From positions 36,539-100,538 of the forward strand of contig CATWBO010000002.1 in NCBI GenBank assembly GCA_958349055.1: a stretch of DNA of 64,000 nt. The letters are read 5' to 3'. Of this stretch, positions 16,973 to 54,099 are shown piece after piece. This DNA comes from an uncultured bacterium. GTDB lineage: Bacteria; Actinomycetota; Coriobacteriia; Coriobacteriales; Coriobacteriaceae. The position numbers and the translations under genes were made by a program. Every line of letters begins with the position of its first letter. Position 1 is the first letter of the stretch. The notes below the pieces were generated by a model. That model ran no database searches, was not told where the DNA came from, and saw only the letters and a program-made list of their open reading frames with translations.

Positions 16973-17050
16973 GATGATTTTTCTGGGACGGGGATTTAAA
17001 AATCATTGAGTACCTAATGATTTTTTAATCCCCGTCCCAGAAAAATCATC
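16973..17050. repeat. 78-nt near-perfect inverted repeat (35-nt arms, 1 mismatch, 8-nt loop), AT-rich
   Basis: Left arm GATGATTTTTCTGGGACGGGGATTTAAAAATCATT (16973-17007), loop gagtacct, right arm AATGATTTTTTAATCCCCGTCCCAGAAAAATCATC (17016-17050). Starts 10 nt after the stop of the preceding gene. Could act as a bidirectional terminator or be a miniature inserted element. Confidence 0.85.
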
Positions 17051-20676: not shown

Positions 20677-20704
20677 TCTGATTTGCATGCAAGGAGGGCC
20701 TGGT

Positions 20705-21493
20705 ATGGCCAACATGACGAGCTCGGTTTCGGCATCGCAGGTTGCCGGTGAGTTGGCGAGCGCTACGTTTGAGGAGATTCCCGCCCTCGTGGAGCATTAT
20801 CGAGAGGACCCGCGCCAGCAGGTGATCAAGGCTTGTGAACGCGCCCTCAAACGCCATGCCAAAGAGCTTGCCGAGCGCGAGCGCGTCAATGACATGTACG
20901 AGCTTATGCACGAGCTTGGCGGCGATGGGGTGGTCGTTGGTGTCGACGAGGTGGGTCGCGGATCGGTGGCCGGTCCTTTGACGGTATGCGCCGTCTGTCT
21001 TCCTATGGAGCCGCGCGTCTGGGGCATCAATGATTCCAAAAAGCTCACGCCCGCGCGCCGCGAGTTGCTCTCAGTGAAGATTGCCGAGGTGGCGACGGCG
21101 ATCGGTTTTTGCCATATCGCGCCGAAGGATATCGATGAGATGGGCATGGCCCGTGCTATCCGTACCGCCGTCGCGGGCGCCGTGGCCGATACAGGACTCG
21201 AGCCCGACTGCGTCCTCATGGATGGCAATCCCTTGGGCGCCGTTCCTAACGAGCGCGATGTGGTGAAGGGCGATGCCAAAATCGCCTGCATCGCCGCGGC
21301 GTCTATCATGGCCAAGGTCACGCGTGACGAGATGATGGTCGAGTACGACGCCGAGTATCCCGAGTACCATCTGGCCGAGTCGAAGGGCTATGCAAGCCCC
21401 GAGCATATCGAGGCCATTCGCAAACATGGACTTTGTCCGCTGCACCGCGTGAGCTTTTGCGGAAACTTTCTGCAGACTGAGCGCCTTTTCTAG
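20705..21493 (+). CDS. rnhB: Ribonuclease HII
   Basis: VGVDEVGRGSVAGPLTVCAV (DEDD site), DSKKL and the C-terminal SFCG region. ATG20705 lies 7 nt after AAGGAGG. ATG20687 is an alternative start. Unusually long (about 60 aa) N-terminal extension. Confidence 0.9.
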   Translation: MANMTSSVSASQVAGELASATFEEIPALVEHYREDPRQQVIKACERALKRHAKELAERERVNDMYELMHELGGDGVVVGVDEVGRGSVAGPLTVCAVCLPMEPRVWGINDSKKLTPARRELLSVKIAEVATAIGFCHIAPKDIDEMGMARAIRTAVAGAVADTGLEPDCVLMDGNPLGAVPNERDVVKGDAKIACIAAASIMAKVTRDEMMVEYDAEYPEYHLAESKGYASPEHIEAIRKHGLCPLHRVSFCGNFLQTERLF

Positions 21494-21542
21494 GTCAATT
21501 GTGGAGACAGGGACCTCTGGGGTTTTATAAACCTGCTGGTAG

Positions 21543-21584
21543 CGGGCCGTATGCAACACCATTGCTGCGTACGGCCCGTTTTTT
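21543..21584 (+). terminator. Terminator of rnhB
   Basis: CGGGCCGTA (21543-21551) pairs with TACGGCCCG (21570-21578) and is followed by TTTTTT. Confidence 0.7.
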
Positions 21585-21591
21585 GACGGCA

Positions 21592-21611
21592 TTTGGTCAG
21601 CTTTTGGTTTG
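21592..21611 (+). promoter_or_regulatory. 20-nt box TTTGGTCAGCTTTTGGTTTG upstream of yraN-comM-dprA (copy 1 of 2)
   Basis: Exact copy of 50993-51012. Lies 72 nt upstream of the yraN ATG, directly after the rnhB terminator. Contains TTTGGT twice, 11 nt apart. Confidence 0.55.
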
Positions 21612-21682
21612 CTTCCGGTACTTACCCGCATGAAAGGTGCCCTCATCATCGGGGCAATGCAGCGTGCGGGAAAGGAGACCCC

Positions 21683-22168
21683 ATGAGTGCCGCAAGCAAA
21701 AAGAGCAAGACGCAGCAACTCAAGGAGCGTTGGGAAAACGGCGAGCTCGACTGCGGGGCGATGACGCCCGAGTTTATCAAGGGACTCAGTCCCCGCGAGC
21801 TGGGCATGCTGGGCGAGCTGATCACTATCGACTACTTTAACGAGCGCGGCTACACCTTGCTGGAGCAGGGTTATCGTTGCACCGAGGGCGAGGCTGATCT
21901 GGTGCTGCTAGATGAGCTCGACGATGTCGTGGTGATGGCCGAGGTCAAGACCAGACGCGTCGCACCGGATTGCAACACGCGGGTCTTTCCCGAGGAGGCC
22001 GTGGACGCCCAAAAGCAACGCCGTTACCGCCGCATCGCAAGTTGCTATCTCATGGAGCATTATCCGCTCAAGGCGATTCGCTTCGATGCCGTGGGTGTCA
22101 CCATTCGCGGCGGGCATATCGCCGAGATCGAGCATCAGTACAACGCATTCGATTGGCAGGTGTCGTGA
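21683..22168 (+). CDS. yraN: YraN-family (UPF0102) endonuclease-like protein
   Basis: Core GELITIDYFNERGYTLLEQGYRCTEGEADLVLLD..VVMAEVKTRR is the YraN/restriction-endonuclease-like fold. ATG21683 lies 4 nt after AAAGGAGA. The ORF-track start at 21593 has no RBS. Confidence 0.8.
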   Translation: MSAASKKSKTQQLKERWENGELDCGAMTPEFIKGLSPRELGMLGELITIDYFNERGYTLLEQGYRCTEGEADLVLLDELDDVVVMAEVKTRRVAPDCNTRVFPEEAVDAQKQRRYRRIASCYLMEHYPLKAIRFDAVGVTIRGGHIAEIEHQYNAFDWQVS

Positions 22169-23691
22169 TGGCGTTCGAGACGTTTGCCGTTCACGCGGCC
22201 TGCATCCGCGGCGTCGAGGCGATTCCCGTCACGGTCGAGGTCTCGCTTGCCGGCGGCGTTCCGGGTATTCAGATGCTCGGCATTCCGAGTATGGAGGTGA
22301 TGGAGTCACGCGGTCGTATTCGCTGTGCGATGCGCTCCGCCGGGTTCGAGATCCCGCGCTCGGGCATTACGGTCAATCTGGCGCCCGGCGATATTCGCAA
22401 GACCGGTAGCGGCTTTGATCTGCCCATCGCCATCGCGGTGCTGGCGGCGGATGGGCAGATTCCCCGCGACAACCTTGATCGTTGCCTTATCGCGGGCGAA
22501 CTTGGTCTGGACGGTACGGTGTTGCCCGTCAAGGGTGAGGTGGCGTTCCAGCTGCTCGCGCGCGATATGGGGCTTTCCTTTATCGCGGGCAGGTCAGATC
22601 AGCATGTGCCGCTCGCGGGCGTGGACTGTGGCTTTATTGATCATCTCTCGCAACTTGCCCACGGTATGGGCGATGCCGCGCGGCACTACTTGGATTCTGA
22701 GGGCGTCGAGGCGACCTTTGAGCCCGAACTCGACTATGCGGACGTGCTGGGGCAGGAAGTCGCTAAACGCGGCATGGCGCTTGCGGCGGCAGGTGAGCTC
22801 GGTTTGCTTATGATCGGGTCCCCGGGATCGGGCAAGACGATGCTCGCCCGTCGTATGACCGGCATCCTGCCCGAGCTTTCCGTTGAGGACCAGCAGGAGG
22901 CGCTGTGCATCCATTCGGTCTTGGGCGAGAACATCGATGGATTATTGGCAGGTCATCGGCCCTTCCGCAGTCCCCACCACAGTATTTCGACCGCAGGCCT
23001 TATCGGCGGCGGGCGCCCGGTGCACCCGGGTGAGATCAGCCTTGCTCATGGCGGCGTGCTCTTTTTGGACGAGCTTGCCGAGTTTCCCACGGGTGTGCTG
23101 CAGACGCTGCGTCAGCCTATCGAACGCGGTTATGTGAGGATCGTACGCGTCGACGGGGCCTTTACCTTCCCGTCGCGCTTTCAGCTGCTGGCTGCGAGCA
23201 ATCCCTGCCCCTGCGGCTTTTTGGGCGATCGTGAGGTGCCGTGTCGCTGCTCGGCGGCGATGGTCGAGCGTTATCGGTCTAAACTGCGCGGTCCTTTGGC
23301 CGACCGTATCGACATGATGATCGATGTGACCCGTCCCGACCCCCAAGTGATTATCGAGGGTGCGGAGGGTATGTCGTCTGCCGAGTTGCGTGACTACGTT
23401 GTGCGCGGTCGCGCTTTTCGCGCTTGGCGCGAATCCCGTATGGACGATGCGGATGCCGAGGCCGAGGATGATGAGACGCGGTCCATTGACGGCGTCGTTT
23501 CGACCTTTGAGCTCGATGATGCGGCGGAGAAGTGTGTGCTCGGCCTGTCGAAGCGCACGCATCTCACGGGCCGCGGCATCGTGCGCCTGGTGCGTATCGC
23601 GCGCACGATCGCAGATGTCGCCGAGAGCGAGCAAGTGACGCAGGACCACGTGCTCGAGGCGGCGATGTACCAGGGAAGGAGGGACCAATGA
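22168..23691 (+). CDS. comM: ComM/YifB Mg-chelatase-like AAA+ protein
   Basis: MAFETFAVHAACIRGVEAIPVTVEV, Walker A GSPGSGKTM, Walker B GVLFLDELAEF and a C-terminal HTH. The ATG overlaps the yraN stop (TGATG). Confidence 0.9.
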   Translation: MAFETFAVHAACIRGVEAIPVTVEVSLAGGVPGIQMLGIPSMEVMESRGRIRCAMRSAGFEIPRSGITVNLAPGDIRKTGSGFDLPIAIAVLAADGQIPRDNLDRCLIAGELGLDGTVLPVKGEVAFQLLARDMGLSFIAGRSDQHVPLAGVDCGFIDHLSQLAHGMGDAARHYLDSEGVEATFEPELDYADVLGQEVAKRGMALAAAGELGLLMIGSPGSGKTMLARRMTGILPELSVEDQQEALCIHSVLGENIDGLLAGHRPFRSPHHSISTAGLIGGGRPVHPGEISLAHGGVLFLDELAEFPTGVLQTLRQPIERGYVRIVRVDGAFTFPSRFQLLAASNPCPCGFLGDREVPCRCSAAMVERYRSKLRGPLADRIDMMIDVTRPDPQVIIEGAEGMSSAELRDYVVRGRAFRAWRESRMDDADAEAEDDETRSIDGVVSTFELDDAAEKCVLGLSKRTHLTGRGIVRLVRIARTIADVAESEQVTQDHVLEAAMYQGRRDQ

Positions 23692-24623
23692 TGGCAGAGG
23701 GGATCTTCGAGTTCCATCCCGGGGACGCTCTGTATCCAGCAACTGTTCTGGAGCTTTCCGATGTGCCCCAGACGCTCTATGTGCGTGGTGACCCTGATGT
23801 GTTATCGACGCCTGCGCTCTCCATCATCGGCGCGCGCAAGGCGTCGCCGTACGGTCTCGCTGTGGCAGAACTTGCTGCCAAGGTCGCGGTTGAGGCGGGC
23901 GTCACGGTGGTCTCGGGTGGCGCGGTCGGTTGCGACCAGGCGTCGGGTTGGGCCGCGGTCAATGCCGGCGGCAAACACGTTGTGGTGCTGGGGACGGGCG
24001 CCGACGTGGTCTATCCGCGCTCGAGCGCGGGGCTTATTACGCGCACGCTCGATACGGGTGGCGCGGTCGTGTCGATCTCCCCGTGGGGCATGGGCCCTCG
24101 CAAGTTTGCCTTTCCGCGGCGTAACCGGGTGATTGCCGCGCTTTCGCAGGCGCTTTTCGTGTCGGAGGCCGGCATGCCCTCGGGCACGTTCTCGACGGCG
24201 GAGGCCGCCATGGACCTGGGGCGAGAACTGCTTGCGGTACCGGGTTCCATTTTGTCACCCGAGTCGCGCGGGACCAACTACCTCATCGCCAACGGGGCCT
24301 GCTGCATTATTGACGAGGAGTCTATTGAGATGGCCATCTCGCGAATCTACGGCACCCTGCGCTACTCGCGCCCCGATGCTCCCGGCATTGCCGACCTGGA
24401 TCAAACGCAGCAGACCGTGATGCATGCGCTCATCGCCTCTCCGCTCAAAGTCGACGACATCGCGGCGCTCGTCTCGCTCGATGCCGTCGGCGTACTCAAA
24501 CTCCTGGGTTCGCTTGAACTCGAGGGCCTTATCGAGCGCATGATGGATGGAAGGTATGCGCCCTCCAAGTTTGCCCTTCACGCCCAGACACCCTTCGGTC
24601 ACAATGGAAAACGTGTCAATTAG
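23688..24623 (+). CDS. dprA: DNA processing protein DprA (Smf)
   Basis: LSIIGARKASPYG...VVSGGAVGCDQASGWAAV...VLGTGADVVYP...FPRRNRVIA is the DprA Rossmann core, with a C-terminal winged-helix-like tail. ATGA overlap with the comM stop. Confidence 0.92.
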   Translation: MMAEGIFEFHPGDALYPATVLELSDVPQTLYVRGDPDVLSTPALSIIGARKASPYGLAVAELAAKVAVEAGVTVVSGGAVGCDQASGWAAVNAGGKHVVVLGTGADVVYPRSSAGLITRTLDTGGAVVSISPWGMGPRKFAFPRRNRVIAALSQALFVSEAGMPSGTFSTAEAAMDLGRELLAVPGSILSPESRGTNYLIANGACCIIDEESIEMAISRIYGTLRYSRPDAPGIADLDQTQQTVMHALIASPLKVDDIAALVSLDAVGVLKLLGSLELEGLIERMMDGRYAPSKFALHAQTPFGHNGKRVN

Positions 24624-41025: not shown

Positions 41026-41116
41026 ACCATTTAACTAAAAGCCGAACGTCTTCTCCGGGCGAATTCCTAGTTTCCCCATGGCTATGGTGTGGAGTTTGTT
41101 CATTGTTTGTTCATTA

Positions 41117-42158
41117 CACTCATTGGGGACAGACTTATATGTGTGCTTTCACTCATTTGGGACAGACATCGATTTGTCATTTTGTCGTTTTGGGCATGTT
41201 TTTGTCGTTCATTGTATATAAATAGGTCACAGGCTCAGCATTTCGCGTTCCTTCTCTCCTTTTAGGTGTTGCCTGTACGGCTTTGAAAGGAGAGACCATG
41301 CCCCGTTGCGCCCGCGAAATTTCGCTCACCGGCTATTACCACGTCTTTGACCGTGGCAACTCCAAACAGATCATTTTTGAAGATGACTCTGACCGATATC
41401 GTTTCTTATCGGACATCTCGGACAGGTTTGCTTGCCATGACGTGGCGGTGTTGGCCTGGTGCCTTATGGACAACCACTTCCATTTGATGGTTGATGACCC
41501 ATTTGACAACCTTTCAAAGGCAATGCAGTGCGCGCTGACGGCCTATGCCAAGTATTTCAATGGGAAAACCGGAAGAACGGGCCACCTGTTTGATAATCGC
41601 TATTCGCGGGTCGCGGTCGAGTCGGACACGCAGGCGGTGCAGTTGCTCGATTATATCCATCTCAATCCCGTGAAAGGTGCGCTCGACTCGCTTGATGCCT
41701 ACCGCTGGTCAAGCTACAAGGCATACCAGCTGGGATACGATCCCTTTGATATCTGCGATGCGGCCCCCATGCTCGATATTGTCGGGGGTTCCCGTCGCTA
41801 TTGCGAGCATCTTAAGGAAGTTGCCGAGCGGATCTGGTCAGTTGAGATTCTTCCGCGTCGACGGATTCCAGACGAGGATGCCCTTACCGTCGCACACGAG
41901 GCCCTGCCGAGCATTGATCCTGCGCTGCTCAAGGCCCTGCCACGCCCCGAACGCGATGCCTGTCTGCTAAGGCTCAGGCGGGCCCATCTCACGGTCAAGC
42001 AAATTGCCCGTATCACCGGTATCGGCGCTACAAGCGTAACCAAGGCCACCACAGGCTGGAACGAGGCGGCCTGAGGCAGGGGCCGAACCGCTGCCGGCAT
42101 GCGTTACGTCTGTCCCCAATGCATGAAAACACTCATGTAAGTCTGTCCCCAATGAGTG
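41117..42158 (+). mobile_element. RAYT/IS200-like element: HUH-Y1 transposase gene bracketed by doubled inverted REP-like repeats
   Basis: The 21-nt ends are identical: CACTCATTGGGGACAGACTTA at 41117-41137 equals the reverse complement of 42138-42158. Each end has a second core copy 33 nt inward: ACTCATTTGGGACAGAC at 41151, GTCTGTCCCCAATGCAT at 42108. Interior GC content is visibly lower than the flanks. Confidence 0.8.
41298..42074 (+). CDS. REP-associated tyrosine transposase-like protein (IS200/Y1 HUH family) with C-terminal HTH
   Basis: HUH motif in CLMDNHFHLMV. Also GHLFDNRYSRV and LLDYIHLNPVKGAL...YRWSSY, typical of the COG1943/RayT group. C-terminal LTVKQIARITGIGATSVTKA is an HTH. ATG41298 follows AAAGGAGAG. 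Confidence 0.8.
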   Translation: MPRCAREISLTGYYHVFDRGNSKQIIFEDDSDRYRFLSDISDRFACHDVAVLAWCLMDNHFHLMVDDPFDNLSKAMQCALTAYAKYFNGKTGRTGHLFDNRYSRVAVESDTQAVQLLDYIHLNPVKGALDSLDAYRWSSYKAYQLGYDPFDICDAAPMLDIVGGSRRYCEHLKEVAERIWSVEILPRRRIPDEDALTVAHEALPSIDPALLKALPRPERDACLLRLRRAHLTVKQIARITGIGATSVTKATTGWNEAA

Positions 42159-42159
42159 C

Positions 42160-42192
42160 AAAAAGGCGCCCTCCGTGGGGGAGGACGCCTTT
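42160..42192 (-). terminator. Terminator of rpmB (minus strand)
   Basis: On the minus strand, AAAGGCGTCCTCCC..GGAGGGCGCC is followed by TTTTT. It abuts the right end of the RAYT element. Confidence 0.7.
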
Positions 42193-49630: not shown

Positions 49631-50875
49631 ATGGCAGCTCGCGTCTGCCTGGTCCACTATCACGAGGTTGGACTGAAGGGCAAGAACCGCGCACATTTTG
49701 AGCATATCCTCATGGATAACATCAAGGCGGCCTTGGCCGCCTTTTCCGTGAACGCCGTGTCTCGAATTTCCGGTTATATCCTCGTGACCTTTAACGAGCA
49801 TCAGGCTGACGAGGCGGCGCGTGTCATTCGCACCGTTCCCGGCGTCGCCCGTGTGTCCCTGGCATACCACACCAACCGCGACCCGCAGGAGTACTGCGCC
49901 GCCGCCGTCAAGGCGCTGCGCGAGTTCGGTCCCTTCGATTCGTTTAAGGTGCATGCTAAGCGCTCCAACACCGACTATGAGCTTACCTCCATCGATATCA
50001 ACCGTCAGGTTGGCGAGGTGCTGTGCGAGGCGTTTCCCGATAAAAAGGTCCAGATGTACGACCCCGACGCGATGGTGCATGTGCTGGTGGTCCAGGGCAG
50101 CGTCTATGTGTATGCGCGCTCCGAGCGCGGCGTGGGCGGCCTGCCGGTGGGTTCTGCCGGCAAGGTTGTGACGCTGCTGTCTTCGGGTATCGATTCGCCC
50201 GTGTCGACGTGGATGCTCGCCCGCCGCGGCGCCGTGTGCGTACCGGTGCATTTCTCCGGTCGTCCGCAGACGCCCGATACGAGTGAGTATCTGGTGCAGG
50301 ACATCATCCGTGCCCTTGCGCCGGGAGTCCAGATCGGCCGTCTGTACGTGGTTCCGTTTGGCGACTGCCAGCGCGAGATTTCGGTCACCTGCCCCAGCAA
50401 CCTGCGCGTGATCATGTATCGCCGCATCATGTATTCGGTTGCCGAGCGCATCGCGCATATCGAGGGCGCCAAGGCTATCGTGACCGGTGAGTCGCTTGGC
50501 CAGGTCGCCTCTCAGACGCTCGAGAACATCATGGCTGTCAACGAGGCTGTGAAGATTCCCGTGTTCCGTCCGCTCATCGGCTCGGACAAGCAGGAGATCA
50601 TTGCGCGTGCCGAGGAAATCGGTACATTCGACATCTCGACCGAGGCCGCGCCCGACTGTTGCACGCTCTTTATGCCGCGCCGTCCCGAGACGCACGCCAA
50701 GCTCGATGCCGTTCATGAGGCCTGGGAGCTGTTCGATCACGAGGAGATGATTGAGCGCTTGCTCAAGCAGACCGAGTACATCGACTTTGAGAGCAACACG
50801 TATAAGGCTCCTAAGACCTTAAAACGCAAACATTCGGAGCTCGCTCCGCGTGAGATTTATCAAGATCACGACTAG
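49631..50875 (+). CDS. thiI: tRNA 4-thiouridine(8) synthase ThiI (THUMP + PP-loop, no rhodanese domain)
   Basis: YHEVGLKGKNR, THUMP region, PP-loop LLSSGIDSPV and CCTLF. Confidence 0.9.
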   Translation: MAARVCLVHYHEVGLKGKNRAHFEHILMDNIKAALAAFSVNAVSRISGYILVTFNEHQADEAARVIRTVPGVARVSLAYHTNRDPQEYCAAAVKALREFGPFDSFKVHAKRSNTDYELTSIDINRQVGEVLCEAFPDKKVQMYDPDAMVHVLVVQGSVYVYARSERGVGGLPVGSAGKVVTLLSSGIDSPVSTWMLARRGAVCVPVHFSGRPQTPDTSEYLVQDIIRALAPGVQIGRLYVVPFGDCQREISVTCPSNLRVIMYRRIMYSVAERIAHIEGAKAIVTGESLGQVASQTLENIMAVNEAVKIPVFRPLIGSDKQEIIARAEEIGTFDISTEAAPDCCTLFMPRRPETHAKLDAVHEAWELFDHEEMIERLLKQTEYIDFESNTYKAPKTLKRKHSELAPREIYQDHD

Positions 50876-50883
50876 TCCCTGCA

Positions 50884-50916
50884 TAAACCGACGATACGTT
50901 TGTATCGTCGGTTTTT
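50884..50916 (+). terminator. Terminator of thiI
   Basis: AAACCGACGATAC, loop gttt, GTATCGTCGGTTT, then TTT. Confidence 0.8.
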
Positions 50917-50992
50917 TGTTATCTGGGTAAACAATGTCAAAATGTTCATTCGCTGACGTGTGACTGAATAAATGGACATGTTTGCGCAAGGT

Positions 50993-51012
50993 TTTGGTCA
51001 GCTTTTGGTTTG
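50993..51012 (+). promoter_or_regulatory. 20-nt box TTTGGTCAGCTTTTGGTTTG upstream of comEA-comEC (copy 2 of 2)
   Basis: Exact copy of 21592-21611. Lies 77 nt upstream of the comEA ATG. Followed by CCGTCAAAA and a third TGGTTTG at 51024-51030. Confidence 0.55.
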
Positions 51013-51088
51013 ACCGTCAAAACTGGTTTGCCCGAGCGGTTCGCTCGGCTGCGATTTCCTGACACGATGGTGTTGGGAGGTTTTTGCT

Positions 51089-51799
51089 ATGGCGCAGCGC
51101 GAACAACACGAACGGGTCAAGCGAATGGACCGCTGGGCGGGCAAGTTGCTCGGGCATAAGGCAGTAGTCGTGGCGATGCTCGTCGTCATTGCGATGGCGA
51201 GCGGCTTGGCGATGGCGAGCTTTGGTGACCGCTCCGGCAATGTTTCGTTTGGGCGCGTTGAGGACTCGGGTCCATCGGCGGAGCCGGGGTCCGGCGATCT
51301 TTCGGACGATGCATCCGATGGGTCTTCGTCTAAGGCGTCTGCCGAAACGGAGGTGTACGTCGATGTAGATGGTGCCGTTGCATCCCCGGGCGTGTACCGG
51401 CTTCAAGATGGAGCGCGGGTATCCCAGGCGATTGATGCTGCCGGAGGGCTAACGGCAGAGGCGGATGTGACGGGGCTTAACCGTGCTTCGAAAGTCACGG
51501 ATGGACAAAAGATCTATGTGCCGACAGTGGGGGAGCAGCAGGCGGCTTTGGCGGCTGGCGGGGCCGATGGCGGCGCCGCTGCGGCATCGGGCAGGGGCGC
51601 TTCGTCGGGGCTTGTGAACATCAATACGGCAAGTGCGGCAGAATTGCAGACGCTTTCGGGCATCGGTCCCTCTATGGCCCAGTCGATTATCGACGAGCGG
51701 ACCCAAAACGGCGCTTTTGCCTCGGTCGACGACCTGATGCGTGTGTCGGGAATCGGCGAGAAGAAACTCGCCAAAATCAAAGATTGCATCTGCGTATGA
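51089..51799 (+). CDS. comEA: DNA receptor ComEA (TM anchor, SLBB-like region, C-terminal helix-hairpin-helix)
   Basis: N-terminal TM segment, KIYVPT, and LVNINTASAAELQTLSGIGPSMAQSIIDERTQNGAFASVDDLMRVSGIGEKKLAKI (HhH x2). Confidence 0.9.
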   Translation: MAQREQHERVKRMDRWAGKLLGHKAVVVAMLVVIAMASGLAMASFGDRSGNVSFGRVEDSGPSAEPGSGDLSDDASDGSSSKASAETEVYVDVDGAVASPGVYRLQDGARVSQAIDAAGGLTAEADVTGLNRASKVTDGQKIYVPTVGEQQAALAAGGADGGAAAASGRGASSGLVNINTASAAELQTLSGIGPSMAQSIIDERTQNGAFASVDDLMRVSGIGEKKLAKIKDCICV

Positions 51800-54099
51800 G
51801 TGCGACCGAGCGTGAGCACGTGATGCCTCCACGGCCATTGTTGCCGTGGACGATGGCCCTTTGTGCCGGCTTGTGTGCGAGTTGCGGCTTGGTGCTTAAC
51901 GTGACGGCTGATGCGCTACTGGGAGAAGGACTGACTTCCGTCACGTTACTCTGGGGCATTCCCGTTGTGGCTGTGGCGTTCGTCGTATTGGCTCGGTCTT
52001 GCATGCGTCTTGTGCGATGGAAGCGATGTCTGTATGCCGCGGCGGTCGGACTCGTGGCGGGAGCGATCGTGTCCGCGGGGTGGGCGATAGGTGCCCTCCG
52101 AGCTTCCAACGCTCTGGATGGACGGGCTGCAAGCAGTCTTGAGTTTGTGGTGCAGGGCGATCCGTCTATCAACGATGATGCGTATTCCTATACCTGTGAC
52201 GCGATCGCGGACGGTTGGCGCGTGGGTGCCGTTCGATTATCGTGCGATCGCGAGCTCAGTGCTGGGTCGCGCGTGCGTGTCATTGGCCGCGTTTCGCGCT
52301 TCGAGAATGATGCGTATGGGCGTTCGCGCGTGCTTCGGGGTGAGCTACGCAAGGTTAAGGCTGTCCGGATTGTGTCGATCGATGGGGGCTCTCCAGGGCC
52401 GTTGCTTCGGCTGCGAAATGAGCTGCTTGCCGCCATTGCTCCCGCGACCGATCCGGCGCGCTCGCTCATTGCCGGCGTTGTCTGCGGACGTTCGTCCGAG
52501 CTGCGCGCCCAGCCGGCGGGCGAATGGTTTTCGGTGACGGGAACGGCGCATCTCATTGCCGTCTCGGGCAGTCATCTTGCCGTCGTAGGGTTTGTGATCG
52601 AGGGCGCCCTGCAAAAGACGCGCTACTCGCGTGGGCTGCAGCGGGCGCTTTTGGCGGTAACGCTTGTGGCCTACGCCGCCTTTACAGGTGCATCACCCTC
52701 GGCTGTTCGTGCGTGCTGCATGGTGTTCGCGACGCTTGTCGCCAACGGTGCCGGGCGTCGTCGGCACGGCCTTTCGGCGCTCTTCGTAACCATGTCCATC
52801 TTTGTGCTACTGCGGCCGACGGTGCTGTTTGAGATGGGCTTTCAGCTTTCATGCGCCAGCGTCTTAGCCATTCTGTGCTTTTGCCCCTATGTGACCTACG
52901 CTTTGGGTGAGCTGGGTGTGCCATCGGGCGTTGCCAGCATGCTTTCCGTCACGCTGTGCTCGCAACTGGCGACACTTCCCATTGCCATTCCTGCCTTCGG
53001 TACGTTCTCGCTCATTGCTCCGCTGGCAAATGCGGTCATCGGTCCGGTGGTGAGCGTACTGCTCGCTGTGTCGATCGTGCTGGCTCCCTTTTCGCTCGTG
53101 GGACCGTTGCGGACTTGGGCGCTCGTTGTGCCCATGATTGCCGCCCGTTGCGCGCTGTTCTTCGAGCAGCTGTTTGCCGCCATGCCGGGTGCATCCGTGA
53201 GCGTGCCGCCCGATAGCATGTGGATTTACCTAGTGCCGTGTTTGCTGGCGGTTCTGCTGGTCTGGTGGCCTCGTCCCCGTGCACGTCCTATGGCGGTGGG
53301 GCTTGCATGTCTGGTGCTCTTGGCTGCGATTCCGTACGTCTATTGGGATCGATTTGCTCCGCCTTCGGTGACGGTGCTCGATGTGGGCCAGGCCGATGCG
53401 ATTCTTATCCGCCAGGGCGGCGCAGTAGCGCTCGTCGACTGTGGGCTCGACGAGCGTGTGGTGGCGGCGTTGGTTCGCAATAACGTGCACCATATCGATG
53501 CCGTCTTTGTGACGCATTGGGATGAGGACCACTGGGGTGGTTTGCCTGCCGTGCTCGAACAGTTTTCGGTCGGAACGATTGGCGTGGCGGCGGATGCGCT
53601 GGAGGATGCCCCTGCCGAGGTACTGAACCGATCTGGCGTGGAGTATCGGCAGGTGCGGCGTGGAGATACCGTTGACATTGGCGCATTTTGCGCCCGCGCG
53701 ATGTGGCCATTCGAGTCCGTGGATGGCGAGGGCAACGAAGACTCGCTTGTCCTGCTGCTCTCCTATGCTCAGGAAGGCAAGGGCCTGCGCATGCTCCTCA
53801 CCGGTGATGCCGAACTCGATCAAGAACGGGAATTCGTGCAGGAGGTGGGGGATATCGATGTCCTTAAGCTTGGGCATCACGGCTCCAAGGTCTCGGTCGA
53901 CGGCGAGCTGCTGGATGTCCTAAGGCCCGAACTCTCCATTGCGAGCGCCGGCGAAGGCAACCGCTATGGTCATCCGTCGGATGCCTGCGTCGATGCCGTG
54001 AGGGAAGCGGGCGGGGCCTTCGCGTGCACGATTGAACACGGCGACATCACTATTACGCCGACCGCGAAGGGCTTTGCCATGCGATGCCAGCGACCATAA
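51796..54099 (+). CDS. comEC: DNA internalisation channel ComEC/Rec2 with metallo-beta-lactamase domain
   Basis: Polytopic competence domain (GTAHLIAVSGSHLAV) plus a C-terminal MBL fold (LDVGQADAILI, VTHWDEDHWGG, KLGHHGS, YGHP). ATG51796 overlaps the comEA stop (ATGA). The ORF-track TTG51784 is an alternative. Confidence 0.92.
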   Translation: MSATEREHVMPPRPLLPWTMALCAGLCASCGLVLNVTADALLGEGLTSVTLLWGIPVVAVAFVVLARSCMRLVRWKRCLYAAAVGLVAGAIVSAGWAIGALRASNALDGRAASSLEFVVQGDPSINDDAYSYTCDAIADGWRVGAVRLSCDRELSAGSRVRVIGRVSRFENDAYGRSRVLRGELRKVKAVRIVSIDGGSPGPLLRLRNELLAAIAPATDPARSLIAGVVCGRSSELRAQPAGEWFSVTGTAHLIAVSGSHLAVVGFVIEGALQKTRYSRGLQRALLAVTLVAYAAFTGASPSAVRACCMVFATLVANGAGRRRHGLSALFVTMSIFVLLRPTVLFEMGFQLSCASVLAILCFCPYVTYALGELGVPSGVASMLSVTLCSQLATLPIAIPAFGTFSLIAPLANAVIGPVVSVLLAVSIVLAPFSLVGPLRTWALVVPMIAARCALFFEQLFAAMPGASVSVPPDSMWIYLVPCLLAVLLVWWPRPRARPMAVGLACLVLLAAIPYVYWDRFAPPSVTVLDVGQADAILIRQGGAVALVDCGLDERVVAALVRNNVHHIDAVFVTHWDEDHWGGLPAVLEQFSVGTIGVAADALEDAPAEVLNRSGVEYRQVRRGDTVDIGAFCARAMWPFESVDGEGNEDSLVLLLSYAQEGKGLRMLLTGDAELDQEREFVQEVGDIDVLKLGHHGSKVSVDGELLDVLRPELSIASAGEGNRYGHPSDACVDAVREAGGAFACTIEHGDITITPTAKGFAMRCQRP

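Follow-up and report, generated by a model that had tools for sequence, protein, structure and literature searches.

Phased direct repeats are documented as operators of winged-helix activators. PhoP of Mycobacterium tuberculosis binds 7-bp direct repeats head-to-tail, with a strict 4-bp spacer, and three to four phased motifs are bound more tightly (PMC4832192). The 22-bp boxes bound by SARPs overlap the -35 element and comprise two 11-bp repeats; contacts are confined to the first 8 bp of each repeat, and 8 bp separate the 3' repeat from the -10 element (PMC10936776). Competence regulons are marked by elements of other designs: the cin-box of SigX is a sigma-factor -10 element, ComK boxes are AT-boxes and CRP-S sites are palindromes, rather than 11-bp direct repeats. 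ComE of Streptococcus pneumoniae is a response regulator of the LytTR type that recognises 9-bp repeats about 21 bp apart and controls early genes. Competence regulation in Actinomycetota is essentially undescribed, and for gut Coriobacteriia we found nothing in the literature searched; a study of Micrococcus luteus gave candidate regulators for the com genes and reported no operator.

Here we analyse a 20-nt box that stands before two operons for DNA uptake and DNA processing in a 64-kb stretch of DNA, hereafter the window. We consider it reasonably likely that this box is the operator of an OmpR/PhoB- or SARP-like winged-helix regulator, acting as an activator at promoters without a -35 element, and that it defines a small regulon of DNA-uptake and DNA-processing genes.

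The box and its two promoters in the window

The 20-mer, TTTGGTCAGCTTTTGGTTTG, is present exactly twice in the window, at 21592-21611 and 50993-51012, both on the plus strand, as the preliminary description of this DNA had reported; a search of the window allowing up to 3 mismatches found no site beyond these two. The pair is the sole exact direct repeat of at least 18 nt in the window, and none of 100 dinucleotide shuffles gave two matches to the 20-mer. Given the base composition of the window, the expected count of any exact 20-mer direct repeat is approximately 5e-3. The box had also been described as AT-rich in GC-rich DNA, and indeed its G+C content is 40%, against 61% for the window. 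Each copy is built of 11-nt units: copy 1 covers the whole of unit 1, TTTGGTCAGCT (21592-21602), and the greater part of unit 2, TTTGGTTTGCT (21603-21613), and in copy 2 the same unit 1 (50993-51003) is followed by TTTGGTTTGAC as unit 2 (51004-51014).

Gene calls on both sides of each box were confirmed by NCBIfam. Box copy 1 lies between rnhB (20687-21493) and a plus-strand operon at 21683-24623 that comprises yraN (21683-22168), comM, also called yifB (approximately 22165-23691), and dprA (approximately 23688-24623), with trmFO 8 nt further on. Box copy 2 lies between thiI (49631-50875) and the plus-strand comEA-comEC operon at 51089-54099 (comEA, 51089-51799; comEC, 51796-54099), which is followed by holA. 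The gap from box to ATG is 71 nt at yraN and 76 nt at comEA; the values of 72 and 77 nt given earlier differ by counting convention, and the gap itself stands. Both copies had been placed just downstream of the terminator of the preceding unit, and strong hairpin-plus-U terminators are found there on the plus strand. That of rnhB (21541-21584) is a long hairpin followed by six U (-28.5 kcal/mol, z -4.5), with box copy 1 starting 8 nt past the U-tract, and that of thiI (50885-50920) has a folding energy of -21.2 kcal/mol (z -6.8). Since rnhB and thiI both end in strong terminators, each of the two operons needs its own promoter.

A scan of both intergenic regions for the sigma-70 -35/-10 consensus gave no match. 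Hexamers resembling a -10 element, which are putative and most of which lack the usual final T, lie 7-9 nt past unit 2; they differ by promoter class, reading TACTTA at yraN and at a third, vsr-like gene described below, and (T/G/C)A(A/T)AAC at comEA. At yraN, the conserved downstream half of the promoter module (21612-21633, plus strand; CTTCCGGTACTTACCCGCATGA) holds a phased third unit, TCCGGTACTTA, and the -10-like TACTTA (21619-21624); transcription would start near 21630. At comEA, the conserved segment 3' of the box (51013-51027, plus strand) reads ACCG..A(A/T)AAC(C/T)GGT and contains an A-rich hexamer (51018-51024) that may act as the -10 element; approximately 25 variable nt come after it. 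Directly 5' of copy 2 is an essentially invariant plus-strand flank, GCAAGGT (50986-50992), which ends the 5' flank in 55 of the 57 comEA loci discussed below, is shifted by one base in the remaining two, and is preceded by 5 nt that vary. Units of the GCAAGG type, at 11-nt phase, recur 5' of comEA in other lineages.

As RNA, the box itself shows no notable structure, and Rfam covariance models gave no matches in the window at gathering thresholds. The comEA leader carries a conserved plus-strand hairpin (51053-51082), followed by a U-run just before the ATG at 51089. The hairpin block is invariant across Collinsella, and the 71-nt stretch that contains it (51030-51100) folds better than its shuffles (z -3.3). 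Because CCUGACAC pairs with GUGUUGGG in this hairpin, the Shine-Dalgarno sequence of comEA, GGGAGG, is predicted to be sequestered. The hairpin could add a second layer to the box, as a translational or attenuation switch.

Repeats of other kinds are also present in the window. At 41114-42161, in an AT-rich gap beside adhE, 54-nt inverted repeats (87% complementary), each with two CACTCATTGGGGACAGAC-like sequences, flank an open reading frame (41283-42074) with a weak match to IS200/Y1 transposases; the whole resembles an element of the RAYT/REP type. At 16973-17050 there is a near-perfect 35-nt inverted repeat (97% complementary, with an 8-nt loop), GATGATTTTTCTGGGACGGGGATTTAAAAATCATT, which could serve as a terminator in both directions or as a palindromic site for a protein.

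Conservation and unit structure within and beyond Collinsella

We scanned one genome per species (the species representatives) for the pattern TTTGGTYRGNNTTTGGTTTG and classed the neighbours of each match by tblastn and flanking sequence. The matches listed number at least 120: 54 between rnhB and yraN, 52 between thiI and comEA, three at a third Collinsella promoter, and 11 chance matches in other phyla (Saprospiraceae, Patescibacteria, Rikenellaceae, Mucilaginibacter and others). Among the Collinsella matches listed, the box is always on the coding strand of the downstream gene and at a fixed distance from it, with two to three copies per genome in the same orientation before the same genes, and the strict motif occurs nowhere else in the approximately 55 Collinsella genomes. 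Since the listed Collinsella matches stay at the same loci, in the same orientation and at the same distance, the box is not the dispersed repeat at many unrelated loci that the preliminary description had allowed for. A scan of viral contigs gave four matches, all of them due to chance, in low-G+C phage contigs. The organism is a Collinsella: the ComEA protein is encoded on contigs of human-gut metagenomes, and those of its relatives that are named come from Collinsella; the best 120 ComEA homologues are all from Collinsella and at least 85% identical.

Because the genome scan had been selected by motif, we also gathered comEA loci from metagenomes by protein similarity; 57 of them extended far enough 5' of the gene. 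Every one of the 57 (ComEA identity 63-97%) has the box, 94-97 nt before the ATG. Conservation in orthologous upstream regions, on which the preliminary description had made its case depend, is found at comEA as well as at yraN. Positions 1-7, 9 and 12-20 of the box are each at least 95% conserved in the 57 loci, and variation falls at position 8 (A in 36, G in 18), position 10 (C in 38, T in 17) and position 11 (T in 50, A in six). As only positions 8, 10 and 11 vary, the anatomy of the box is that of two conserved units, TTTGGTCAG and TTTGGTTTG, placed 11 nt apart with free spacers. In most Collinsella the yraN and comEA sites differ from one another at these three positions, so the match of 20 out of 20 bases between the copies in the window is a special case: among the matches listed, TTTGGTCAGCTTTTGGTTTG is identical at 49 of the 54 yraN sites in Collinsella genomes, and only 17 of the 52 comEA sites equal the yraN 20-mer. 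In MGYG-HGUT-02732, for example, the yraN and comEA sites differ at two spacer positions. Identity of the 20-mer at the two operons, as first described, thus holds in the window and not as a general rule.

Loci of the third promoter define the unit most clearly as TTTGGTCAG plus two free bases, with an 11-nt period; unit 2 at yraN and comEA, TTTGGTTTG, is a weaker copy of it. The array at yraN is longer than the box, having TTTTGACGGCA before it and TCCGGTACTTA after it, both in phase, which makes up to four units; the first of these, a degenerate unit 0 (21581-21591, plus strand) in phase with units 1 and 2, reads TTTTGTCGGCA in many Collinsella. The preliminary description had seen TTTGGT twice with 11-nt spacing and had taken this as a sign of tandem sites. 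The period of one helical turn is borne out by the pattern of conservation, and the repeated unit proves to be TTTGGTCAG plus two variable nucleotides rather than TTTGGT alone. With up to 2 mismatches, TTTGGT-N5-TTTGGT fits three successive registers at yraN (21581, 21592 and 21603), and it has eight matches in the window against 1.8 expected. A further proposal, that TGAC/GTCA-type inverted half-sites flank the two copies, did not hold up. The 9-mers concerned, TTTTGACGG and CCGTCAAAA, are present in the window as described; among the matches listed, TTTTGACGG is found at 32 of the 54 yraN sites and CCGTCAAAA at three of the 52 comEA sites, and the comEA flank type of the window occurs in three of the 57 loci gathered by protein. 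We regard the half-sites as strain-specific coincidences.

Three odd matches in the genome scan led to a 385-aa protein whose family abounds in Collinsella and forms clusters with thousands of members. One source names it a very-short-patch-repair endonuclease, and we refer to it as vsr-like. Pfam gave sub-threshold matches only (REase_MTES_1575 in 22 of 22 family members and DUF559 in 17 of 22), sequence searches of PDB, NCBIfam and PADLOC found nothing, and the predicted structure has a mean pLDDT of 40.8. When vsr-like loci from three identity groups (90, 86 and 70%) were fetched by protein rather than by motif, all of them had TTTGGTCAG-(TG/TA)-TTTGGTCAG followed by CTTCC(G/C)GTACTTACCC(G/A)(C/T)ATGA, 106-109 nt before the ATG. 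The flanks of these arrays are unrelated between identity groups, and the units vary at positions 10 and 11. Most vsr-like sites escaped the strict scan pattern because their unit 2 has TCAG, not TTTG. The 22 nt after the box (21612-21633) are nearly unchanged between yraN and the vsr-like gene, and the outer flanks differ; these two promoters have a 42-nt module in common, and the comEA promoter shares just the repeats. Thus, the idea that the box marks a DNA-uptake regulon stands insofar as the box is conserved and locus-specific at both operons, but a gene outside the classical uptake set belongs to the same group, and the presumed link to competence comes from gene content.

A second element is common to the yraN and vsr-like upstream regions. 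This island, CAATTGTGGAGACAGGGACC, lies directly after the rnhB stop codon (21496-21515, plus strand) and is unique in the window; in loci L225-L235 it is found approximately 87 nt 5' of the box, with non-conserved sequence and a terminator-like hairpin in between. In two loci (L051 and L129), duplicated tRNA-like sequences lie 1.4-2.9 kb 3' of the vsr-like gene, visible as repeated open reading frame translations with GGVAQLGERLTGSQEVRGSIPLVSTR, and variable toxin-antitoxin-like genes (Fic, nucleotidyltransferase, XRE-family HTH and DUF3825) lie 5' of it. With these tRNA-like duplicates and variable neighbours, the vsr-like gene sits at the edge of a variable region.

One further box promoter was found in Collinsella MGYG-HGUT-00333 (L044, positions 1285-1304), where it reads TTTTCGGTCAAGC-TTTTCGTCAAGTG-TTTGGTCAGCA-TTTGGTTTG. 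This promoter has two extra TTTTCG(G)TCAAG units on its 5' side and a good TATTTT hexamer on its 3' side. The 235-aa open reading frame behind it has no Pfam or PADLOC match, and a 360-aa open reading frame comes next; homology of the 360-aa protein to the 385-aa vsr-like protein (L051) was considered and rejected.

The yraN operon has the same gene order in four more distant loci, in whose upstream regions units were read by eye: five GTTGG units in L018 (YraN 71% identical); GGTTAG, GGTCAG, TGCCAG, GGTCAG and TGTCAG in L021 (52%); CACAGC, CGCAGG and GACAGC in L023 (50%); and TTCGG, GTCGG, GTCAG and CTCGG in L236 (47%). The core common to these distant units is GTC(A/G)G-like. We computed autocorrelation at lag 11 for the two window regions, for L018, L021 and L023, and for 10-11 distant comEA regions (45-55% for several), which came from a search of representatives and a metagenome scan. 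Lag 11 was the highest of lags 7-16 in the two window regions, L018, L021, L023, L203 (tied with lag 16), L212, L220 and L224, with the best lag-11 windows beginning 100-123 nt before the start codon. In the eight of these regions other than L203, between 0 and 15 of 300 shuffles reached the observed value. Conservation of phased arrays beyond Collinsella is just suggestive, because six of the 10-11 distant comEA regions have no lag-11 signal and the comparisons outside Collinsella span different genomes. The arrays of L219 (approximately 95-115 nt 5' of comEA) and L021 (5' of yraN) both open with AATCCTG(G)T(T/C)AG; if these two loci come from one lineage, as they may, a CTGTCAG-type unit is common to its comEA and yraN as well.

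Comparison with described systems and alternative explanations

The arrays resemble OmpR/PhoB sites, such as the E. coli Pho box and the PhoP site TCACAGC-N4-TCACAGC, in their 11-bp period, conserved cores, free spacers, extension to three or four units, and probable replacement of the -35 element of an otherwise weak promoter. Direct repeats at this period occur in both window copies (21592/21603 and 50993/51004) and as a perfect TTTGGTCAG-NN-TTTGGTCAG at the third gene, and conserved cores with free spacers are seen both there and across the 57 comEA sites. They differ from OmpR/PhoB sites in the unit, TTTGGTCAG, and in their targets, which concern DNA uptake and processing rather than phosphate or virulence. 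The likeness to SARP boxes, such as the 22-bp afs box of AfsR, lies in two 11-bp direct repeats with approximately the first 8 bases conserved and the last 3 free, and in the presumed overlap with the -35 region and the spacer of a promoter whose hexamers are poor. Both kinds of site belong to one phylum, and 7-9 nt separate the repeats here from the putative -10. By contrast, known SARPs come from antibiotic clusters in Streptomyces and its relatives, and the repeat sequence is unrelated.

Comparison with competence elements concerns logic and role more than sequence. As with the ComE box of S. pneumoniae, a response regulator on direct repeats 5' of competence genes is the logic we propose; unlike the ComE box, the repeats here have a period of 11 nt, lie at late rather than early genes, and show no sequence similarity to it. 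The cin-box, ComK boxes and CRP-S sites are alike in role, in that one short element marks comEA-comEC and dprA as a regulon, but TACGAATA (cin-box), AAAA-N5-TTTT (ComK) and TGCGA-N6-TCGCA (CRP-S) are absent from both strands of both intergenic regions, and LexA boxes are likewise absent from both regions. In Actinomycetota, the RecA-NDp/PafBC promoter motif is tTGTCRgtg-N8-TAnnnT. Its core, TGTC(A/G)G, is similar to the GTC(A/G)G of the units, and it has in common with the box the phylum, targets in DNA metabolism and, probably, the replacement of the -35 element. It is, however, a single copy placed 8 nt from TAnnnT, whereas the arrays have two to five phased copies and no TAnnnT at that place; the pattern has no match in the window with up to 1 mismatch.

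We propose that the operator consists of 11-bp-phased direct repeats, with two strong units and up to four units at yraN, to which an OmpR/PhoB response regulator or SARP-type winged-helix protein probably binds head-to-tail. Such a regulator is proposed because the phased units, the free spacers and the position at promoters without a -35 element match documented winged-helix activators. The site would occupy the place of the -35 element and spacer, a few bases 5' of a weak -10-like hexamer, and the bound regulator would recruit RNA polymerase to promoters that have no -35 element. Activation is the most likely mode of action, since the site seems to take the place of the -35 and spacer next to a weak -10-like hexamer, right after a terminator. 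In Collinsella, one module would drive at least three units: yraN-comM-dprA, comEA-comEC and the Vsr/DUF559-like gene. Window open reading frames scanned against Pfam or NCBIfam include no candidate gene for the regulator, being housekeeping genes or having no match. Database proteins in which YraN is joined to response-regulator or HPPK sequence (P0181-P0183, P0190-P0201 and P0196) are metagenome chimeras joined at the shared peptide ADLVLLD; the YraN-response-regulator fusions P0181-P0183 and P0196 were considered as a lead to the regulator and rejected as such assembly artefacts.

The same operator could be the site of a repressor that occludes the promoter, leaving the DNA-uptake genes silent until a signal lifts it. 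DNA-uptake genes are silent under laboratory conditions in many bacteria, and the site overlaps the region that RNA polymerase must occupy. We nonetheless think repression unlikely, given that there is no recognisable -35 and just a weak -10 to mask, and that phased direct repeats abutting a -10 are a documented activator architecture. Less probable again is that an orthologue of PhoB, PhoP or RegX3 binds the box as a Pho box, with uptake serving phosphate or nucleotide scavenging rather than transformation. The architecture of two 11-bp units, apparently in place of the -35, is the same, and the E. coli Pho box heptad, CTGTCAT, is resembled by the CTGTCAG and GGTCAG units of L021 and L219, as the M. 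tuberculosis PhoP motif TCACAGC is by the CACAGC and GACAGC units of L023. These resemblances span only 4-6 bases, however, and OmpR-family sites look alike in general; moreover, the at least 109 Collinsella strict-motif matches listed, among which degenerate sites would be missed, include no pst, pho or phosphatase gene. If the box were a Pho box, DNA uptake would be tied to phosphate scavenging in a gut anaerobe.

Two further explanations do without a separate DNA-binding regulator, and we give little credence to either. The box might belong to a promoter that an alternative sigma factor similar to ComX or SigH recognises. Competence sigma factors exist in Bacillota, the sigma-70 consensus is absent here, and the same 42-nt module occurs at two unrelated genes. 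This is very unlikely, because the elements duplicate one another at a distance of only 11 nt and so cannot form a -35/-10 pair, and because the -10 regions differ by promoter class. In addition, there is no cin-box, and the sigma-54 pattern (TGGCAC-N5-TTGC) has no match in either intergenic region: the box has its GG dinucleotides at a spacing of 11 nt rather than 12, and the second of them is GG where that pattern has GC. To our knowledge, Actinomycetota lack rpoN. The chances are slimmer still for a generic element, promoter or upstream element, that spread from locus to locus by copying and that possibly consists of intrinsically bent DNA with phased T-tracts. T-runs at 11-nt phase can bend DNA, and the 42-nt block and second island common to the yraN and vsr-like promoters suggest copying; yet conservation is base-specific, with GGTC.G kept and the spacers free, which curvature would not need, the comEA promoter has the repeats but lacks the remainder of the module, and among the Collinsella matches listed by the genome scan described above the strict motif stands at these promoters only. 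That scan also contradicts a dispersed repeat, whether a REP or MITE, a DNA uptake sequence or a recombination site, and we consider this explanation practically dismissed. The box is an exact intergenic repeat and the RAYT-like element has repeats of its own elsewhere in the window, but the box has no inverted-repeat ends and matches neither the RAYT-flanking repeats nor any Rfam family.

Implications for DNA uptake in Collinsella

The preliminary description held the control element to be undescribed, and we agree as far as the literature searched is concerned: it contains no description of competence control in Collinsella or of the box motif, the motif string retrieved just unrelated primer sequences, and this literature yielded no report of a naturally transformable Collinsella. 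The kind of element is familiar; what would be new is its use, in this phylum, as a shared mark of late DNA-uptake and DNA-processing genes. A bolder form of our proposal, which we put forward tentatively and hold to be the less probable one, is that natural competence in Coriobacteriia has a dedicated master regulator whose operator is the box, with late genes activated directly through phased repeats by a two-component-type activator, rather than by a competence sigma factor, ComK or CRP-Sxy. If so, no earlier cis-element would have been defined for a competence regulon of Actinomycetota, and Collinsella would be naturally transformable under a specific signal.

A specific and conserved box provides a handle on this system, as bait for the regulator, as a reporter for the inducing signal, and as a seed for a search for the rest of the regulon. 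Collinsella is genetically intractable and medically relevant, and it ranks among the human-gut genera of greatest abundance and strain diversity; if artificial induction of the regulator proves feasible, the genus might become transformable. The finding also bears on the origin of gene flow in a genus whose strain diversity is extreme.
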